Shown here one piece after another: positions 9,255 through 34,440 of a stretch of 64,000 nt of DNA. The notes beneath the pieces were generated by a model. The model was given only the letters and a program-made list of their open reading frames with translations. It did no database searches and was not told the origin of the DNA. The DNA lies in the NCBI RefSeq assembly GCF_056712565.1, contig NZ_CM160072.1; one strand, given 5' to 3'. A program made the translations under genes and the position numbers. Position 1 is the first letter of the stretch. Every line of letters begins with the position of its first letter.

Positions 9255-9273
9255 GTGCTTTCCCCGCCTCGCC
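9255..9273. other. P2 cos site (19-nt cohesive-end sequence)
   Basis: gtgctttccccgcctcgcc is the reverse complement of GGCGAGGCGGGGAAAGCAC, the P2 cohesive end as I recall it; about 170 nt downstream of Q as in P2. Confidence 0.6.
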
Positions 9274-9466
9274 CGCCCGCTTCATGGGGCGGTTTTAATG
9301 CAGTTGCATGATGAAACTGAAATCACATCAGCACTGACCGAAACTGACAAAAAGAATAGTATCTGACACATGCAAAAACACGCACTTAATATACGCCTAT
9401 CTATAGCTCCTACAGGATTGTCAAAAAACGACCAACTCGTCATAGCGTAAACACATTTGGCTCAAC

Positions 9467-9565
9467 GAACACTTACGTTATATGCCTCTTGAACATATCA
9501 AAGTCTTAAGGTAGATCTTTACCACTAAGTGGCTATATTAAGCTGCTTTTTTACATACAATAAAA
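9467..9565 (+). promoter_or_regulatory. Putative promoter region of the cargo gene (AT-rich; candidate -10 TATATT 9534-9539 or TACAAT 9556-9561)
   Basis: AT-rich upstream region with -10-like hexamers; no convincing -35; SD GAGG at 9578-9581. Confidence 0.25.
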
Positions 9566-9588
9566 GCTTTATCGTATGAGGCATAAAA

Positions 9589-11805
9589 ATGGAACTTAGA
9601 TTAAAAAATGTTACCAGTTATAAGAAAGACGCCTTCACAATACTGAATCTTGAAAAAAGAGTAAACATACTATACGGCCAAAATGGTTGTGGCAAATCTA
9701 CCATTTCAAATTATTTCTACGACTCTACACACACAGATTATAACGAGTGTGAATGTACCCTTCTTGACAATTACAAACCTCTTGTTTACAACACTAAATT
9801 TATTGAAGATAACTTCTATAATGCACAGGAACAAAAAGGTGTTTTTACATTAAGTAAAGAAAATGCAGATATTGAAAAACAATTAATTGAAAAAGAAGCA
9901 ATTAAACAGCAACTCACAGAGCAATATAGACAAAAAAAAGGAGTGTTATTGAAATTAGAAGCAGAAATGGAAAAAAAAGAAAATGAATACATCGAATCGA
10001 TCTGGAAAAAAACAGAACCAATCAGAAACTCTGTACTAAAAACCTTAATGAAAGGTAAAGTTGGCTATAAAAGACCTTTTTTTGAGATGATAAAATCATC
10101 CTCACCAATCACCTTTATTAATTTAAATGATATAGCAAAAGAATACTCTATACTATTAGAAAATAGAAACAATGAAACCGCATTAATAACTCCTTTACAT
10201 CCATATACCCCATCAATTGATGATGTAAATACATTAGCAACACCTATAATAGATACAAGCAATAGCTATTTATCAGAAACCATTAATAAACTTCATAATC
10301 TTGACTGGGTAAAAAAAGGTAAAGAACATTATTTAGACGGTTCTACATGTCCGTTTTGTCAGGAAAAAACTATTAGTCACGAATTTTTAAATGCCCTTAA
10401 ATCAATATTTGACGAAAGTTATTCAAAGAAAGTAAAACAGCTCTCAGATATAAAGTCAGTTTATGAGAAAAATACCATATATCATTTTAACGAAATACAA
10501 AACAATATATCATCATGTGCACTAATCAATGAGAAAGATAAAGAGAACATTATTTCCAATATTAAAATATTGCAAAACATTGCAGAAAAAAATTTAATAA
10601 ACATTATTGATAAGATCAACAATCCATCAACATGCGTTACATTAGAAATTGATAAAGAACTAGAAAATCATGTTCAGGAAAGCATAGGCGCTGTTAACAA
10701 GAAAATAAGAGACATAAATGATAAGGTTAAAAAACTCAAAGAGTATGAGAATAAAATCGGAAAACAAGTTTGGGGGGCTCTCCATGCTTTTTGCAGCGAT
10801 GATTTAGAGAATTTATCCAAACACAAAGAAAAATTCTTTGATATCAAAAAGAAAGTTCATGATGAATTAAATAATATTGAGCAACAAGGAAAAGAAAATA
10901 ATCTCACAATAAAAGCATTGCGAGATAAAATATCTAACATTGATTCTACGATAGACTCAATAAACACCCATTTAAAAAATCTAGGGATCTCTGGTTTTTG
11001 TATTGAAAAACATGCAGAAAGAAAAGATATGTACATTATATCTCGACCAGGGCATACAAAAAACCAAAATGTTTATAGATCTCTTAGCGAAGGTGAAAAA
11101 ACACTAATAACGTTTCTTTATTTTTTAGAGTGCTGTAAAGGTAAAACCGATAAAAATGATACCGATAGCAGGGATATTTTTATTGTTATTGACGATCCAA
11201 TATCTAGTCTATCGCAAAACTATGTCTACGACATCGCATCAATTATTCATCACCACATTATAAAAAATGAATTAACAAAGAAGGTATTAATCCTTACTCA
11301 CAATCTTTATTTCTTTCATGAACTTATTAAGCTATCTCCTAAAAGCAGAGAAGACAAACTATTTAAGAAAAACTATTATCTAGGTAGAGTAACGAAAAAT
11401 GATTTTAGTATAATTACTGAAATACAAAAAAACAGCATACAGAATGAATATCAATCTTTGTGGCAAATATTAAAAGATGCAAAAGATGGCAAAGCAAACA
11501 AAATCATAATACCGAATATTATGAGAAACATACTAGAATATTATTTTGCATTTGTTCATAGAACAGATGCTCTACAAGATGAATTAACAAAGTTGGCACG
11601 CGACGATAGCAACAGTGATTTCAAAGCATTCTACAGATACATTAACAGAGGTTCTCACTCTGATGCGGTAAATATTACTGATATGGGCGACATAGACCCA
11701 GATAAATACCTAAAACAATTGAGAACAATATTTTCAGCTACTGGTGACGAAATGCATTATTTAAAAATGATGGACGAACTAGAAGAGGAAAACGTTACCG
11801 CTTAG
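9589..11805 (+). CDS. ABC-type ATPase with coiled-coil/zinc-hook insertion and C-terminal effector-like domain; RloC/PrrC-like candidate anticodon nuclease (stand-alone defence gene)
   Basis: 738-aa ORF; Walker A GQNGCGKST, CPFC in a K/E/N-rich insert, LSEGEK signature, IFIVIDDP Walker B, LILTHN H-loop, C-terminal RNILE...H; strongly AT-rich relative to flanking prophage; sits in the P2 cos-A accessory position. Confidence 0.55.
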   Translation: MELRLKNVTSYKKDAFTILNLEKRVNILYGQNGCGKSTISNYFYDSTHTDYNECECTLLDNYKPLVYNTKFIEDNFYNAQEQKGVFTLSKENADIEKQLIEKEAIKQQLTEQYRQKKGVLLKLEAEMEKKENEYIESIWKKTEPIRNSVLKTLMKGKVGYKRPFFEMIKSSSPITFINLNDIAKEYSILLENRNNETALITPLHPYTPSIDDVNTLATPIIDTSNSYLSETINKLHNLDWVKKGKEHYLDGSTCPFCQEKTISHEFLNALKSIFDESYSKKVKQLSDIKSVYEKNTIYHFNEIQNNISSCALINEKDKENIISNIKILQNIAEKNLINIIDKINNPSTCVTLEIDKELENHVQESIGAVNKKIRDINDKVKKLKEYENKIGKQVWGALHAFCSDDLENLSKHKEKFFDIKKKVHDELNNIEQQGKENNLTIKALRDKISNIDSTIDSINTHLKNLGISGFCIEKHAERKDMYIISRPGHTKNQNVYRSLSEGEKTLITFLYFLECCKGKTDKNDTDSRDIFIVIDDPISSLSQNYVYDIASIIHHHIIKNELTKKVLILTHNLYFFHELIKLSPKSREDKLFKKNYYLGRVTKNDFSIITEIQKNSIQNEYQSLWQILKDAKDGKANKIIIPNIMRNILEYYFAFVHRTDALQDELTKLARDDSNSDFKAFYRYINRGSHSDAVNITDMGDIDPDKYLKQLRTIFSATGDEMHYLKMMDELEEENVTA

Positions 11806-11833
11806 GCCGCATATTATCGTTTTGGGTAAGAAC

Positions 11834-11853
11834 GACGGTGCTTACGCACCGTC
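11834..11853. terminator. Hairpin downstream of cargo gene (possible weak or bidirectional terminator)
   Basis: GACGGTGC-ttac-GCACCGTC perfect 8-bp stem; no clear T-run. Confidence 0.3.
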
Positions 11854-12028
11854 TCCCAACGCCCAAAGCGGTAGCGGTTGTACTGGCGTACATTCACTAG
11901 CTTTAACATGAGGCAATCTCCATGCCAGCACTATTGTTGCCAATAGCAGCCTTTATACCCTTTGTACAAAGCTAATACCAAGAGTAATGCAAAGTAGATG
12001 TCCCAAGCGGTAACGGGGCTATTCTATG

Positions 12029-14320
12029 TCAAACACAGAAAAAATCAAAGCGCCCTATGAATCCCCCCCAACCATCAGCGACCGGATACGTGAATTTTTT
12101 CCCGTCATAATTTACGGTCGCTCCACGCGCCAGCGCCTCAAGCTCCCATCGCTGCGGCATGATACCGTTCTGAGCAAGGTCAACGCGGATACGGGTGATT
12201 TGCAATCGTTCAGACCTGGTCAGTCTGGCAGATGGTGCAATTTCATGCGGTTTTAACGGGCTTCCGTTTCTTTGCTGACGGTTTGGCGTTCTCAGGTCGT
12301 ATTTTAATGCGCCCCTGAGCGCCCTCACGACCTCCGGTTCATTCCATTCAATAACACCGTCATCAACCAGATTAAGCACTGCTGCGGCGTGCTCAGAAGG
12401 TGTGGGAGCCGGTAACGAAGTATCACCACCGGTGAGCTTTCCACAGTTATTGACAGGACTCCGAGGCGCGGCGATGCCGCTTTTTAAAGTCAAAGGCTCA
12501 ACGACCGGAACTTTCGGCACAATGCGCCAGTCCGTCGTTCTGGTGATATGAATATGACGCGCGCCGAGATGCGGCGCGTAAATGCCGACCACTCTCTCGA
12601 CTTCTTCCTCGTACTCGTTAACGTCATCCGACGGGCTACGGGCAACCCTGACAGTCTGACAATCGCGCGGGACATTTGCCCCACCCTGCGCGCTGATATA
12701 CAACGCAAAATCACCACTGTCTGCGGCAGCGCGAGCAGCCTCGACGCGTTCGTCAAACTCATCAGCAATACTGACGCCGCGAGGCAATTTGCGTAGTTCA
12801 CGGTAAGCCCCCATTGTCGGCAGGCCAACCGTTTTAAATTGCGGAATTCGCCACGTTGACGCCCATGCGGTAACAGCCGCAGCAGTATCTTTCAGCGGCC
12901 TGCCGGTATCATTATCGAGCTGACCATCCAGTGCATAGCCATCGATGTTTTTTGAGATGTATTTTGCGATATACCCCGCAGCACCGCCCCGGTTAAGATG
13001 TTTTGCCTGAAAACGGTTTCGCGCGGCTCCTCTTTCGTCGCCATCCTCTTTGAGCGCATAGCGACGCATGATTTCGATAATCTGGTTACGCTGGCGTGGA
13101 TTACAAAAAAGCATCATATGCCAGTGCGGCGTTCCGTCGTGGTGTGGCTCGACGACACGCAAACCGTAGACCTGTAAATCATTATCCTTGAATGCCGTGC
13201 GCATCAGGCTCCAGATATGGCAGAGATAACGCTGCGCATCCTTTGGATTAAATGCCTCATCGTTCCAGCCGTGATTTAGCTGGACGGTTTTACTTTCGCC
13301 TTTTCCGACCTGACGTGTCGGGTGATACTTTGACGGCGCGGTAAGCGTGATAAACATCCCCACATCACCCTCTGCGGCGGCGTAACGCTCAATACCGGCA
13401 ATGGTGTTCATCAGCTCCATCCGGCGAATTTCAGGATTAGAAATACTGCCCATCACCTTACTGATAAGGTCGATGCGTTCGCCGGTTTCCCTGTTTTCAA
13501 GGTCACACGATTTAAGAAATTCCAGATTTGCCTGGCGGCGTGCACGCACATCACGAATGGCATGTTTACTGGCATAAGGTGAACGGTCTTTATTGACCTC
13601 CCCGACAGCAATCAGTAACGCCTCATGCCAGCGCATACGCTGGCCTTTAAGCTGACTAATCCACCACTCATCGTTAAACAGGCGGGCAATGGCAGAATAT
13701 GCCTGCCTCGTGGTCATCTGTCCTTTACGGTATTTTTTCCAGTAGAGCGGGGAAATATTGAAAGCACGTGCAGCGCCAGCAACATGACCATAGAGGTGAG
13801 CCTGCGCCTCATCCGTAAACAGCGATTCTTTTTCGCCATGCGCATCCACCCAGGCATCGCAGAGTTCCTCATACATCATGAAAAGCTGCGATGAGATACG
13901 GGCGGCAAACTTTTTCAGCTCCTTATCATTCATCCCCGGCAGACGCGCATAATGGTCACGCTCTGCCAGAAACAGCAACGACGCGTCGGTGTTCATTTCA
14001 TGGCGCTGATTCACACGCTCAATGCGCGGCCATAAACGACGCTGAAAAGTGGATGTGAGGAAATAAAACCCGTGCACCGGGCTTTTATTGCGCCGGATGT
14101 AGTCATAGCGTGAAGTAAACAGCGAGCGCAAAAAGTAAGGCAGGCGGTTAATCGTGGATAAAACACCTTGCACCTGACGCATCTCGTCACGTGTAAGGGG
14201 TCTTTCGCGCCCGACGGCCTCGCGTGGCGCGTTCCATGCATAAGCACCGGTAAACGTCTTACCGGTGCCTGCGGTAAATGCTGACGGAGGGACAAAACGC
14301 CCGGAGGCTTTAACGGCCAT
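12029..14320 (-). CDS. A: Replication initiation (rolling-circle nicking) protein (P2 gpA)
   Basis: Long ORF; start taken at ATG 14320 (MAVKASGRFVPPSAF...) rather than the ORF-track start at 14362. Confidence 0.9.
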   Translation of the reverse strand: MAVKASGRFVPPSAFTAGTGKTFTGAYAWNAPREAVGRERPLTRDEMRQVQGVLSTINRLPYFLRSLFTSRYDYIRRNKSPVHGFYFLTSTFQRRLWPRIERVNQRHEMNTDASLLFLAERDHYARLPGMNDKELKKFAARISSQLFMMYEELCDAWVDAHGEKESLFTDEAQAHLYGHVAGAARAFNISPLYWKKYRKGQMTTRQAYSAIARLFNDEWWISQLKGQRMRWHEALLIAVGEVNKDRSPYASKHAIRDVRARRQANLEFLKSCDLENRETGERIDLISKVMGSISNPEIRRMELMNTIAGIERYAAAEGDVGMFITLTAPSKYHPTRQVGKGESKTVQLNHGWNDEAFNPKDAQRYLCHIWSLMRTAFKDNDLQVYGLRVVEPHHDGTPHWHMMLFCNPRQRNQIIEIMRRYALKEDGDERGAARNRFQAKHLNRGGAAGYIAKYISKNIDGYALDGQLDNDTGRPLKDTAAAVTAWASTWRIPQFKTVGLPTMGAYRELRKLPRGVSIADEFDERVEAARAAADSGDFALYISAQGGANVPRDCQTVRVARSPSDDVNEYEEEVERVVGIYAPHLGARHIHITRTTDWRIVPKVPVVEPLTLKSGIAAPRSPVNNCGKLTGGDTSLPAPTPSEHAAAVLNLVDDGVIEWNEPEVVRALRGALKYDLRTPNRQQRNGSPLKPHEIAPSARLTRSERLQITRIRVDLAQNGIMPQRWELEALARGATVNYDGKKFTYPVADGWGGFIGRFDFFCV

Positions 14321-14585
14321 ATGAGCCAAAAGCCTCTGAACAACGCTTGCTGAGTTGCTCAACCTGCGCGTTTAAATCAGCAAAAGACTTTGCGCTTCCG
14401 GTCAGAATATCGTGATGCATCAGGCCGGAAACGAGCTGGCTTAATTTCGGGTAATAACCAACCACCGCCAGCCATTCCTGACCGGCGTTTTTACCGCTTT
14501 CCGCTCTCTTTTTCTCGTGGAGAATAAACTGAAAGCTGTCACTGGTAACGACATAACGTTCGCCAATTTCAATACGAATACTCAT
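14310..14585 (-). CDS. P2 early-operon small protein (orf80-83 family)
   Basis: 91-aa ORF immediately upstream of A. Confidence 0.6.
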   Translation of the reverse strand: MSIRIEIGERYVVTSDSFQFILHEKKRAESGKNAGQEWLAVVGYYPKLSQLVSGLMHHDILTGSAKSFADLNAQVEQLSKRCSEAFGSYGR

Positions 14586-14806
14586 GCCGTTCTCCGGTAA
14601 TGTTTGTTTTTTGCTTCAAAGACTGACTGACAGGAAACACAACGCGTGGCTGACGGATAAGCCGCACGACGGGCAGCAGGTATTGGCGCGTCACACTCTT
14701 CGCAAACCAGCGCAGAAGCACCGCAATGTTTTACCCTTGCCGCGTTAATCTGGCGCTCCAGTAATTCAGCCTGTTGTTCCTGAATAAAATCTACGTTGTC
14801 CGGCAT
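14582..14806 (-). CDS. TraR/DksA-type C4 zinc-finger protein of the P2 early operon
   Basis: 74 aa with C-x2-C ... C-x2-C (CEEC ... CVSC). Confidence 0.7.
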   Translation of the reverse strand: MPDNVDFIQEQQAELLERQINAARVKHCGASALVCEECDAPIPAARRAAYPSATRCVSCQSVFEAKNKHYRRTA

Positions 14807-14808
14807 TA

Positions 14809-15111
14809 TCAGCTCCTTTTATCGTTAAGTTTCCTGGATACATCAGCGCAATAACTGGCAAGTTCTGTCGTTAATTTTGTCAGTTCATCCACTGAGGAAA
14901 TTTGCTTGTGGAATACAGCGCGTTTAACAAGTAAATTGACCACATCAGACAGGAGGTTTAATTCATTCTGATAAATCGCGATAACAGATTCAGTGATGTC
15001 GCGTTTTTCTTTATCAAGACAAAGTTGAATAAGAGACAAATCGCCATTTTTCATAACGGCGATTTTTAAGGCGTTATTCAGTAATACAACTGAATGAGAA
15101 CAGGACATCAA
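14809..15111 (-). CDS. P2 early-operon small protein, hypothetical
   Basis: 100-aa ORF, tightly packed in early operon. Confidence 0.6.
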
Positions 15112-15332
15112 AGTACCTCCCCGCGAGACAATCCGATATTGTGAAATTTTTCCGACTCCTGACTGAGCAGCTCGACTATCTCCACGCGGGATAACTCCGC
15201 CTTTGTGATATGGCGAATCATGGCGTCAAGATGAGAAGAAAAGCGCGTCGCAGCGTCGGCCTGTGCTTCGGTTCTGGCCTGTTGCAGCAGTAATGCGTAT
15301 TTACCGCACTGATTTTCAGAAACTGTATGCAT
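15108..15332 (-). CDS. P2 early-operon small protein, hypothetical
   Basis: 74-aa ORF, overlapping stop/start with neighbour. Confidence 0.6.
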
Positions 15333-15395
15333 GACTTTCTCCGGGCAAAAAGAAGCCCCGCACGATTAAGCGCGTTAAAAACTCTGGTTAATTAC

Positions 15396-15902
15396 TTAAT
15401 GCAGATATTGCTCTGGTTTTACCGACGTCAGAATTGTCGGTGCATACTCAAACAGACTGAATAATTCACGTAATGCACGGAATAAAGCATCACGCCAGTA
15501 ACATGATTCCTCATTAATTCGCCAGTATGGCTGGTTAAATTCTTTTTCTGTCAGTCGTGCGTGCATAAATAAAGTGCGACGCTGACTGACTGTTAAAAAA
15601 CTAATATATGCATACTCACTTGCGCCAACCTGACGGCGTTTTGAGAATGCCCCACGCAACTCATCAATTGCACATACCAGTCGTTCACGTTCGACGTCGT
15701 TCATTTCTTCAAAACGCATCGTTGCGTGACGCTGTTTTAACTGCGCATGAAAGCAAACCGTTAGCCGTTCGCGCTCCATCATCTGATTATAATAATCACA
15801 TGTATCCTGCCAGCGAGGAACGGCAAGATGCTTACCAATTATCCGGCGCATAGCTGCTGGCTGTTTTTCAACGAGATTGAGCGTCATCACTGTCATTTCC
15901 AT
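15396..15902 (-). CDS. B: Replication protein B
   Basis: 168-aa ORF (possible real start at 15896, MTVMTLNL...); P2 position between cox and the small ORFs. Confidence 0.8.
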   Translation of the reverse strand: MEMTVMTLNLVEKQPAAMRRIIGKHLAVPRWQDTCDYYNQMMERERLTVCFHAQLKQRHATMRFEEMNDVERERLVCAIDELRGAFSKRRQVGASEYAYISFLTVSQRRTLFMHARLTEKEFNQPYWRINEESCYWRDALFRALRELFSLFEYAPTILTSVKPEQYLH

Positions 15903-16063
15903 ACCCTCCGGCTTTTCAGAAAGGTCAGAGCCTTTTTTAACGGACTCTGTTTTTTGGTGCGGATAATGATTCCCTTACGCCCCTTACCGTGGGTGATGGT
16001 GAAGTCAATCGCCCTGGGGCTTTCGTTACGCAATAACTGAGCAATACAACGAGGCTCGTTCAT
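15893..16063 (-). CDS. P2 orf78-like small protein
   Basis: 56 aa from ATG 16063 preceded by AAGGAG; lies between cox and B. Confidence 0.5.
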   Translation of the reverse strand: MNEPRCIAQLLRNESPRAIDFTITHGKGRKGIIIRTKKQSPLKKALTFLKSRRVWK

Positions 16064-16073
16064 ACGGTTCTCC

Positions 16074-16349
16074 TTAACGTGGTTCACCGAGACCTAACCA
16101 CATCAACCAGCCGTCACGAATCTCTTTAGGGCGGCTTTCATAAGCCAGTTTTAGTCCGTTATTCCATGCCGGAAGGTATACCCAATATTCACCTGCACGA
16201 CCTGAAGCTGATTGTGGATCGGTCATATCAATTACAGGCAGCTTTCCTTTATCGATCATCCGACGAACCGCTCCTGTCGATTTTCCTATTAGTTTTGCGA
16301 ACTCCTGATAAGGAATCGCATCAGTCATGAGTGTTACTTGCTTGCTCAT
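16074..16349 (-). CDS. cox: Cox (excisionase / transcriptional regulator)
   Basis: 91 aa, divergent from C. Confidence 0.85.
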   Translation of the reverse strand: MSKQVTLMTDAIPYQEFAKLIGKSTGAVRRMIDKGKLPVIDMTDPQSASGRAGEYWVYLPAWNNGLKLAYESRPKEIRDGWLMWLGLGEPR

Positions 16350-16463
16350 GTCGTCCCCCAGCCCTCATGAATTGCGTTTAATGCCTTATAATGCCTTTTA
16401 GTGCCCACATCCAAGCACTAAACAATCTACATCTAAACTAAATACCATTGAGATCTAAACACC
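16350..16463. promoter_or_regulatory. P2 immunity switch: Pe/Pc promoter region with two direct-repeat operator half-sites ATCTAAAC (16431-16438 and 16453-16460)
   Basis: Two identical 8-mers spaced 22 bp between divergent cox and C; TATAAT at 16386-16391. Confidence 0.5.
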
Positions 16464-16763
16464 ATGTCAAACACGATAAGCGAGAAGATAGTCTTAATGC
16501 GAAAATCAGAGTATTTGAGCAGACAACAACTTGCTGATTTAACAGGGGTTCCGTATGGCACGCTGAGTTACTATGAAAGTGGTCGTTCAACACCTCCAAC
16601 AGATGTCATGATGAACATCCTGCAGACCCCACAATTCACCAAATACACTTTATGGTTCATGACCAATCAGGTCGCTCCTGAGTCCGGGCAAATTGCGCCC
16701 GCTCTCGCACACTTTGGGCAAAACGAAACAACGTCGCCCCACTCCGGTCAAAAGACTGGTTAA
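16464..16763 (+). CDS. C: Immunity repressor C
   Basis: 99 aa MSNTISEKIVLMRKSEYLSRQQLADLTGVPYGTLSYYESG..., helix-turn-helix. Confidence 0.9.
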   Translation: MSNTISEKIVLMRKSEYLSRQQLADLTGVPYGTLSYYESGRSTPPTDVMMNILQTPQFTKYTLWFMTNQVAPESGQIAPALAHFGQNETTSPHSGQKTG

Positions 16764-16878: not shown

Positions 16879-17892
16879 ATGGCAATCAAAAAACTCGATG
16901 ATGGTCGATATGAAGTGGACATCCGCCCTACTGGACGTAACGGAAAACGCATCCGTAGGAAGTTTGATAAGAAAAGCGAAGCTGTCGCTTTCGAAAAATA
17001 CACGTTGTACAACCACCACAATAAAGAATGGCTATCAAAACCAACAGACAAACGACGTCTGTCGGAACTGACACAGATCTGGTGGGATTTAAAGGGTAAA
17101 CACGAAGAGCATGGGAAATCTAATCTTGGAAAAATTGAAATCTTCACAAAAATAACGAATGACCCATGCGCATTTCAAATCACGAAATCCCTTATCAGCC
17201 AGTACTGCGCCACCCGAAGAAGCCAGGGTATTAAACCTTCGAGTATCAATCGTGATTTAACATGTATTAGCGGCATGTTTACAGCCCTGATTGAAGCGGA
17301 GTTATTCTTTGGTGAGCACCCTATCAGAGGGACAAAGAGGCTTAAGGAGGAAAAACCAGAAACAGGCTATCTCACACAGGAAGAAATTGCCTTACTGCTT
17401 GCAGCACTTGACGGCGACAATAAAAAGATTGCGATTCTTTGCCTGAGTACAGGAGCACGTTGGGGAGAAGCAGCTCGTTTGAAAGCAGAAAATATCATCC
17501 ATAACCGCGTCACGTTTGTTAAAACGAAAACAAACAAACCACGCACCGTCCCGATTTCAGAGGCTGTTGCCAAAATGATCGCGGATAACAAACGAGGTTT
17601 TTTATTCCCTGATGCTGATTACCCTCGCTTCAGACGAACAATGAAAGCAATAAAACCGGATTTGCCAATGGGGCAAGCCACACATGCACTAAGGCACAGC
17701 TTTGCCACTCATTTCATGATTAATGGAGGAAGTATTATCACGCTACAACGGATACTAGGTCACACGCGGATTGAGCAAACTATGGTTTACGCTCATTTTG
17801 CGCCAGAGTACCTTCAGGACGCCATTTCTCTTAATCCGCTAAGAGGTGGTACTGAGGCCGAGAGTGTCCACACAGTGTCCACAGTAGAGTAA
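16879..17892 (+). CDS. int: Tyrosine integrase
   Basis: 337 aa with C-terminal R...H-x-x-R...Y catalytic signature (HALRHSFATH ... MVYAHF). Confidence 0.95.
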   Translation: MAIKKLDDGRYEVDIRPTGRNGKRIRRKFDKKSEAVAFEKYTLYNHHNKEWLSKPTDKRRLSELTQIWWDLKGKHEEHGKSNLGKIEIFTKITNDPCAFQITKSLISQYCATRRSQGIKPSSINRDLTCISGMFTALIEAELFFGEHPIRGTKRLKEEKPETGYLTQEEIALLLAALDGDNKKIAILCLSTGARWGEAARLKAENIIHNRVTFVKTKTNKPRTVPISEAVAKMIADNKRGFLFPDADYPRFRRTMKAIKPDLPMGQATHALRHSFATHFMINGGSIITLQRILGHTRIEQTMVYAHFAPEYLQDAISLNPLRGGTEAESVHTVSTVE

Positions 17893-17971
17893 CGTTTAAG
17901 GGCTTTCAGTGGTAATTTATGCCGCTCAAACCCGCATTGTACCGTTGAAAGCCCCTACTGGTGACACCCTA

Positions 17972-17998
17972 AATCTCCCTTACACGGGCTTATTTTTT
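17972..17998. other. P2 att core (prophage end, int-proximal)
   Basis: aatctcccttacacgggcttatttttt is the reverse complement of the 27-nt P2 core AAAAAATAAGCCCGTGTAAGGGAGATT as I recall it; 80 nt downstream of int. Confidence 0.55.
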
Positions 17999-24143: not shown

Positions 24144-26301
<2,158 letters not shown>

Positions 26302-34308: not shown

Positions 34309-34440
34309 AGTTTGCTCCTGCCATAACGTGAAGAAGCAATGACCTGGTGGTCCGTGACTTCCCTACGCTGGCATTATCCAGATCAGGTGATACGGGTATT
34401 TCTCAGCCTTCACAAAGAAGGGCACCCCGAGTCGTTTGGT
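34309..34440 (-). promoter_or_regulatory. TPP (THI-box) riboswitch in thiM 5' leader
   Basis: Minus strand reads CUCGGGGUGCCCUUCUUUGUGAAGGCUGAGAAAUACCCGUAUCACCUGAUCUGGAUAAUGCCAGCGUAGGGAAGUCACGGACC, then SD and AUG. Confidence 0.8.

Follow-up and report, generated by a model that had tools for sequence, protein, structure and literature searches.

A P2-class repressor operator beside a recurrently altered early-promoter base in an Escherichia coli prophage

The operator O1/O2 of phage P2 is annotated in GenBank and has been studied by EMSA, SPR, reporter assays and crystallography, and the Cox protein of the same phage is known both as a repressor of the lysogenic promoter Pc, on which it acts via the cox-boxes, and as the excision directionality factor, required for excision. 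The C repressor of P2 binds two 8-bp direct repeats that lie 22 bp apart, centre to centre, on either side of the -10 hexamer that belongs to Pe, the early promoter (PMC1904268). The half-site reads GTTTAGAT, and exchanging O1 for an unrelated sequence abolished repression in vivo; a primer-extension product obtained in P2 fits the presumed start of Pe (PMC1904263). Structural modelling placed one C dimer on each half-site, and cooperative binding was proposed (PMC2995052). The cox-boxes, with the consensus TTAAA(G/C)NC(A/C), overlap Pc, and P2 prophages defective in cox release no phage (PMC3936717).

Two heteroimmune phages use other versions of this operator: P2 Hy dis has 8-bp repeats 26 bp apart around the -35 of Pe, W-phi has 10-bp repeats 34 bp apart, and their C proteins are, respectively, 63% and 43% identical to that of P2 (PMC1904268). 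The locus described here shares with both a small C repressor, two direct-repeat half-sites and convergent Pe and Pc promoters, but it differs from them in the sequence, length, spacing and position of the half-sites and clearly belongs with P2. It resembles P2 (AF063097; 2XCJ/2L49) in the half-sites, their 22-bp spacing and their place around the Pe -10, in the Pe -35, the Pc -10 and the cox-boxes, and in a gene order of A...B-orf78-cox on one side and C-int-att on the other, with Cox 100% and C 99% identical. It is unlike P2 in four substitutions within the cox-C spacer, one of which turns the Pe -10 from TAGTAT into TGGTAT, in an I70V change in C, and in its cargo, a PDC-S06/AAA_13 ATPase gene having replaced old/tin.

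We analysed a stretch of 64 kb, hereafter the window, whose left 18 kb are the prophage part and are collinear with P2, the left half of the prophage lying outside the window (Table 1). To the right of 17999, as examined to about 36.5 kb, the sequence is chromosomal (yegR, yegS, the gat operon and others). We assign the host element to a P2-type (Peduovirus) prophage inserted between yegQ and yegR of the E. coli chromosome. Several complete E. coli genomes, SF-468 among them, match the first 19 kb of the window at 100% identity. In SF-468 the prophage is present in full between yegQ and yegR, with every P2 gene from ogr to int and no pseudogene flags in RefSeq; the partner att core of SF-468, matching at 25 of 28 positions, adjoins ogr and yegQ. 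Seen through SF-468, the element thus has the P2 essential genes in P2 order together with the att cores, as in a complete Peduovirus prophage. Next to cos, in the insert found at the position of old/tin in P2, a 738-aa ATPase is encoded (9589-11805, + strand); its match to PDC-S06, a candidate defence family in PADLOC, has E=1e-254, and it also matches Pfam AAA_13. The type strain ATCC 11775 has this cargo gene interrupted by ISEc12, a member of the IS21 family. Two Rfam matches at gathering level were found in the chromosomal part, an OrzO-P type I antitoxin RNA (53884-53957, + strand, 91.5 bits) and a TPP riboswitch upstream of thiM (34343-34439, - strand).

Another prophage at the same chromosomal site, that of APEC O1 (NC_008563.1 2260945-2301004, our locus L051), has the same TGGTAT allele within the same 60-mer. 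It is heavily decayed: it has deletions, its scaffold gene borders directly on a baseplate J gene that is truncated, truncated tail-fibre and tail-sheath genes have an IS21-family element between them, and the cargo is different (DprA-like). The idea that the window represents this degraded prophage was discarded, given its 100% identity to SF-468, where the prophage is annotated as complete.

Table 1. Window coordinates of the switch elements and of the surrounding prophage segments, with their P2 counterparts
Feature	Position	Strand	Details
Segment collinear with P2	1-9273		P2 9271-1, genes S through Q; 97.7% identity
cos region	about 9255-9302		
Foreign cargo	9303-12058		In place of P2 old/tin
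Segment collinear with P2	12059-17999		P2 30295-24355, A through int to att core; 98.0% identity
Early operon remainder (orf78, B, orf80-83, A)	12029-16063	-	Pe-driven; collinear with P2, 98.0% identity
cox	16074-16349	-	91-aa ORF; 91/91 identical to P2 Cox; PDB 4LHF and Pfam Phage_Cox matches
Pc -35 hexamer, ATGAAT	16367-16372	+	Annotated in P2 AF063097; identical in window
Three tandem cox-boxes over Pc	16373-16400	-	16373-16381 TTAAACGCA; 16382-16390 TATAAGGCA; 16392-16400 TAAAAGGCA
Pc -10 hexamer, TATAAT	16387-16392	+	P2 annotation of the Pc hexamers, 25962-25967 and 25982-25987; identical in window
O2 half-site, C repressor operator	16431-16438	-	GTTTAGAT; equals AF063097 25916-25923, 'O2 repressor binding site'
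Pe -10 hexamer	16442-16447	-	TGGTAT here, TAGTAT in P2; P2 annotation 25907-25912
Pe -11 substitution, derived, recurrent	16446	-	G on - strand, C on + strand; A/T in P2 and most relatives
O1 half-site, C repressor operator	16453-16460	-	GTTTAGAT; equals AF063097 25894-25901, 'O1 repressor binding site'
C, immunity repressor, 99 aa, HTH	16464-16763	+	98/99 vs P2 gpC; PDB 2XCJ/2L49, Pfam HTH_3
Pe -35 hexamer, TTGACA	16465-16470	-	P2 annotation 25884-25889; identical in window; overlaps C codons 1-3
int, integrase	16879-17892	+	337-aa ORF at the position of P2 int; co-transcribed with C from Pc
att core at prophage-chromosome junction	17971-17998		28/28 vs P2 attP core 24356-24383; then yegR

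The initial annotation had proposed that two identical 8-mers between cox and C form an operator of the P2 type. The interval it marked, 16350-16463, is exactly the cox-C intergenic spacer, 114 bp between the cox ATG at 16349 (- strand) and the C ATG at 16464 (+ strand), and the repeat is as it described. On the + strand ATCTAAAC is found at the two half-site positions of Table 1, with a start-to-start spacing of 22 bp, and these are its only two copies on both strands of the 64-kb window, for which shuffling predicts 1.62 copies. Its reverse complement is GTTTAGAT, so that the P2 pattern of two directly repeated 8-bp half-sites at 22 bp centre to centre is present. We carried out the comparison with P2 O1 and O2 that had been suggested as a check and found the sequences identical (AF063097; PMC1904268, PMC1904263). 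The cox-C fragment aligned with P2 without gaps, both 8-mers coinciding with the annotated O2 and O1 sites, and the agreement extends to sequence, spacing and position alike; over 751 bp around the operator, identity to P2 is 99.1%. That the half-sites occupy the part of the spacer nearest to C follows from their position around the -10 of Pe, a promoter that is read leftward, in the direction of cox. O2, distal to C, overlaps the expected start of Pe transcription, and O1 ends 3 bp ahead of the C start codon. The layout of half-sites and promoters is therefore that of P2, with the Pe -35 and the Pc -10 conserved and the flanked hexamer altered. One detail of the earlier description held in part: cox and C are divergent as genes, but their promoters are not, Pe and Pc being convergent and facing each other.

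On composition the repeat is only moderately unusual, and its significance rests on homology rather than statistics. Some exact 8-mer direct repeat was present in 18% of random 114-mers generated by a first-order Markov model, a frequency that by itself would leave room for a coincidence in an A+T-rich spacer, and an 8-mer of this kind might equally serve another protein, such as Cox or IHF. Both ideas have almost nothing left to them once the base-for-base identity to the experimentally defined O1 and O2 of P2 is considered; a repeat spaced 21-22 bp turned up in just 0.56% of the random sequences, which together with that identity led us to reject chance, and good cox-box matches lie elsewhere, over Pc. 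We are thus close to certain, from the match to P2, that the two 8-mers would act as functional P2-type half-sites. Every feature of the P2 immunity class that can be tested on sequence was found, indicating that this is the P2 operator itself and not a relative of it. As such it is already known, the textbook O1/O2, and this copy adds nothing new to it.

The remaining elements of the immunity side support the same assignment. C matches the 'C protein' of PDB 2XCJ/2L49 over its full length (E=8.5e-64) and is essentially identical to P2 C (98/99), against 63% or less for the heteroimmune classes. Its sole change is I70V (codon 70 at 16671). The same residue, Ile70, is reportedly the one altered in the classical c7 mutation of P2, Ile70Asp. 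It lies on the protein surface, near an area implicated in the interaction with the P4 E antirepressor (PMC2995052), and the change to valine is conservative and probably neutral. Cox is intact (91/91), and the three cox-boxes over Pc agree with the consensus at 9, 7 and 8 of 9 positions, their starts 9-10 bp apart. Because the half-sites are identical to those of P2 and C and Cox are identical at 98/99 and 91/91 residues, the P2 immunity specificity claimed at the outset is well supported, and the prophage can be placed in the P2 immunity class. We infer C binding in this strain, and immunity to P2 superinfection, from the identity of both partners. For annotation, the value of this placement is that the prophage should exclude phages of the P2 immune type.

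The claim that the region is a functional lysogeny switch fared less well. Repression and immunity seem unimpaired, but the Pe -10 reads TGGTAT in place of the TAGTAT of P2, so that the claim is overstated. The four substitutions that separate the window from P2 in the 114-bp spacer fall at 16357, 16359, 16384 and 16446. The first two are in the ribosome-binding region of cox, and the third falls on the degenerate base (N) of a cox-box. The fourth, 16446, alters the second base of the Pe -10 hexamer and amounts to an A-to-G change at -11. The canonical hexamer of a functional bistable P2 switch, with A at -11, is thus absent. A consensus promoter scan found Pe in P2 (TTGACA-17-TAGTAT, 10/12 matches), and the same scan of window positions 16250-16560 found no promoter on either strand, Pe included. 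An alternative promoter for cox was discarded on the same scan.

The base concerned, -11A, is of special importance for nucleating promoter melting, and once it was replaced, promoter-fragment probes bound RNA polymerase up to ~1000-fold less well, or still ~300-fold less well with an extended -10, figures that were obtained in vitro for A-11T whereas the window change is A-11G (PMC3753650). Within the literature searched, nothing useful was found on Pe -10 mutants or on the yegQ/yegR integration site. We consider it rather likely, from the position of the change, that G at -11 substantially weakens Pe. The early operon orf78-B-orf80-83-A depends on this mutated promoter, and the lytic side of the switch is probably crippled.

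We determined how common the allele is. Among 5,426 complete E. coli genomes 395 carry the operator, and the window allele, scored as the exact window 60-mer, is present in 18 of these, the other 377 differing by one or two mismatches. When the hexamer was left free, two of 48 IMG/VR loci had the window allele and 46 had TAGTAT; none of 12 metagenome loci had it, nor did any of 10 phage records, a sample (six phages) too small to inform. These hexamer-wildcard scans of IMG/VR and metagenomes (60 loci) returned TAGTAT and TGGTAT and no other variant. An anchor-based scan showed that other bases of the 39-bp core vary in nature, one O1 variant included; the notion that 16446 is the only variable base was therefore dropped, and variation at one core base is unremarkable in itself.

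The direction of the change could be read from close relatives. Those nearest to the window have the P2 base, T, at 16446: MS20653 (2 differences in 19,000), CEA212U (3) and the type strain ATCC 11775. At 2809, the other difference common to these relatives, P2 agrees with the relatives, so that the derived state belongs to the window lineage. The -11 allele is thus both rare and derived. Position 2809 lies in gene L (head completion protein); apart from it and 16446, the window and MS20653 agree throughout the 19 kb. At 2809, too, the window allele is derived relative to P2, and the change is presumably non-synonymous, as the protein accession of gpL differs.

A different reading of these data is that the switch is fully functional and P2-like, G at -11 being a tolerated, effectively neutral polymorphism that leaves Pe strong enough. 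Pe in the window keeps a perfect -35 (TTGACA) and the 17-bp spacer, and given these, residual activity may suffice for lytic growth. Through the -11 change a TG has also arisen two bases ahead of TATTTA, and the - strand sequence TGGTATTTA fits the extended -10 pattern TGnTATTTA. SF-468 and similar carriers are without pseudogenes in the prophage, and related APEC/ExPEC isolates forming a clade have kept the allele; most carriers have a prophage that is intact in other respects, so that the mutation is either recent or not disabling. Against this reading stand the role of -11A in melting and the loss that persists even in an extended -10 context. The new TG-TATTTA element is at best a possible weak extended -10 and would be a poor substitute for the Pe -10: its register is shifted by 3 bp to 20 bp from the -35, and it lacks the -7T, whose loss brought a further drop of roughly 200- to 700-fold with consensus -10 probes (PMC3753650). 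The allele is also missing from the 10 phage records, a small sample, and occurs mostly on very short terminal branches, as expected without horizontal spread. We therefore regard neutrality as an unlikely account, though one to be taken seriously, and a weakened Pe as the better one.

It is still less probable that the substitution acts on C rather than on Pe. The operator offers one route, since one helix of each C dimer has been proposed to read the 8-bp repeat and the other to contact DNA outside it (PMC2995052), so that 16446 might be a spacer contact of the second HTH. The other route is translation of C through its 5' UTR, as 16446 is transcribed from Pc and precedes the C ATG by 18 nt. 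The predicted Pc leader folds in the same way with C or T, and accessibility of the initiation region is 0.394 vs 0.397. With predicted structure and accessibility unchanged between the alleles, an effect through the C leader RNA is not supported.

Taken as a whole, a P2 operator combined with a weakened Pe, in a switch biased to lysogeny, is the best explanation of the locus, and we put its probability at about 0.85. By analogy with work on P2, one C dimer would bind each direct repeat, cooperatively and with bending of the DNA. Because the repeats flank the -10 and the start site of Pe, C on O1 and O2 would occlude both and turn off the leftward early operon cox-orf78-B-...-A, and the weak convergent Pc would go on expressing C and Int. 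Cox, made from Pe, would counter this by coating the cox-boxes over Pc. With repressor, half-sites, Pe -35, Pc -10, cox-boxes and Cox all P2-like, immunity of the P2 type should be conferred. A G at -11 would make Pe much weaker, so that little Cox would be produced even when repression lapses, and with little Cox, excision and spontaneous release of phage would seldom or never occur, in line with what is seen in P2 prophages defective in cox. Pc, in turn, would be relieved of interference from the convergent Pe; such relief is expected because in P2 itself Pc was detectable only once Pe had been inactivated (PMC1904263). The net outcome would be a switch biased or locked to lysogeny with P2-type immunity retained. 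A lysogeny-locked switch of this kind, its lytic arm down and its immunity intact, is what we infer for the window.

The same base change was found outside the window lineage. C at 16446 is present in prophages that have different flanking haplotypes, cargo and integrase alleles, namely those of UTME-13, JCKP02 and the IMG/VR locus L026. Comparison of sister pairs that differ in the allele located the change precisely. SF-468 (C) and MS20653 (T) are separated by 2 SNPs in 19 kb, 16446 being one of them; JCKP02 and VTB96777v (T) by 2 differences in 7.6 kb, again including 16446; and UTME-13 and WP8-S18-CRE-02 (T) by 9 differences in 7.6 kb, the nearest others lying 1-2 kb from 16446. Three sister pairs thus split at exactly 16446, and therefore the A-to-G change at Pe -11 arose at least three times, in three unrelated prophage backgrounds. 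The notable point is the recurrence at a functionally critical base, on very short branches, and a derived, recurrent change at a key base of the lytic promoter is also the only wider interest of the locus.

Recurrence of this kind need not be due to selection: the base could be a hotspot of mutation, or P2-type prophages at the same site could have exchanged it in short gene-conversion tracts. Conversion has some appeal. The prophages are mosaic: FDAARGOS_1261 shares the window sequence without a difference as far as 16768 and has another haplotype beyond it, the APEC O1 haplotype switches to the left of 16002, and every carrier examined sits at the yegQ/yegR site. Yet 16446 is one of only two differences in two of the sister pairs (19 kb and 7.6 kb), and in the third the nearest differences are 1-2 kb off, so that conversion would have had to bring in this one base alone; we judge such single-base import by recombination far less likely than recurrent mutation. 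As to a hotspot, the change is a transition, but by inspection the site contains no Dcm motif (CCWGG), and a hotspot driven by methylation was discarded on that ground. Overall, an explanation by hotspot or conversion instead of selection seems to us possible and somewhat doubtful.

Selection, for its part, can be put forward only tentatively. The -11 change might be an adaptive 'grounding' mutation that silences the lytic operon and locks the prophage in place while the immunity due to C and the cargo defence gene are kept, and that has perhaps reached fixation on three or more separate occasions in E. coli lineages, one clade of O1/O2:K1:H7 APEC/ExPEC strains included. Like grounded (domesticated) prophages, the element retains immunity and cargo genes and carries a change expected to impair the lytic programme, and the APEC O1 copy, of the same lineage, went on to lose structural genes through deletions and an IS21-family element. 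Unlike such prophages, the window shows one promoter base as its only suspect lesion, gene content being otherwise complete (SF-468) and the loss of function putative. If grounding is the right reading, the change would be a natural and repeatable first step of prophage domestication. If Pe is disabled, the locus would be a clean natural example of a host lineage fixing a prophage in place by one nucleotide, and would illustrate that intact operators and repressor genes do not certify a working switch. A near-isogenic natural strain pair exists, with two SNPs across the 19 kb compared.

Several minor features of the operator region were also recorded. A partial copy of the half-site (6/8, CACTAAAC) lies at 16416-16423, 15 bp upstream of O2, and a GATC (Dam) site at 16452-16455, inside a BglII site, overlaps O1 and not O2; both are present in P2, where they have no functional annotation. 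One viral contig from IMG/VR (L076, UViG_2588253749_000009) has the O1 variant ATCTAAAT in place of ATCTAAAC, and five other contigs vary at 16439 and 16440, positions that directly follow the Pe -10 on its downstream side.
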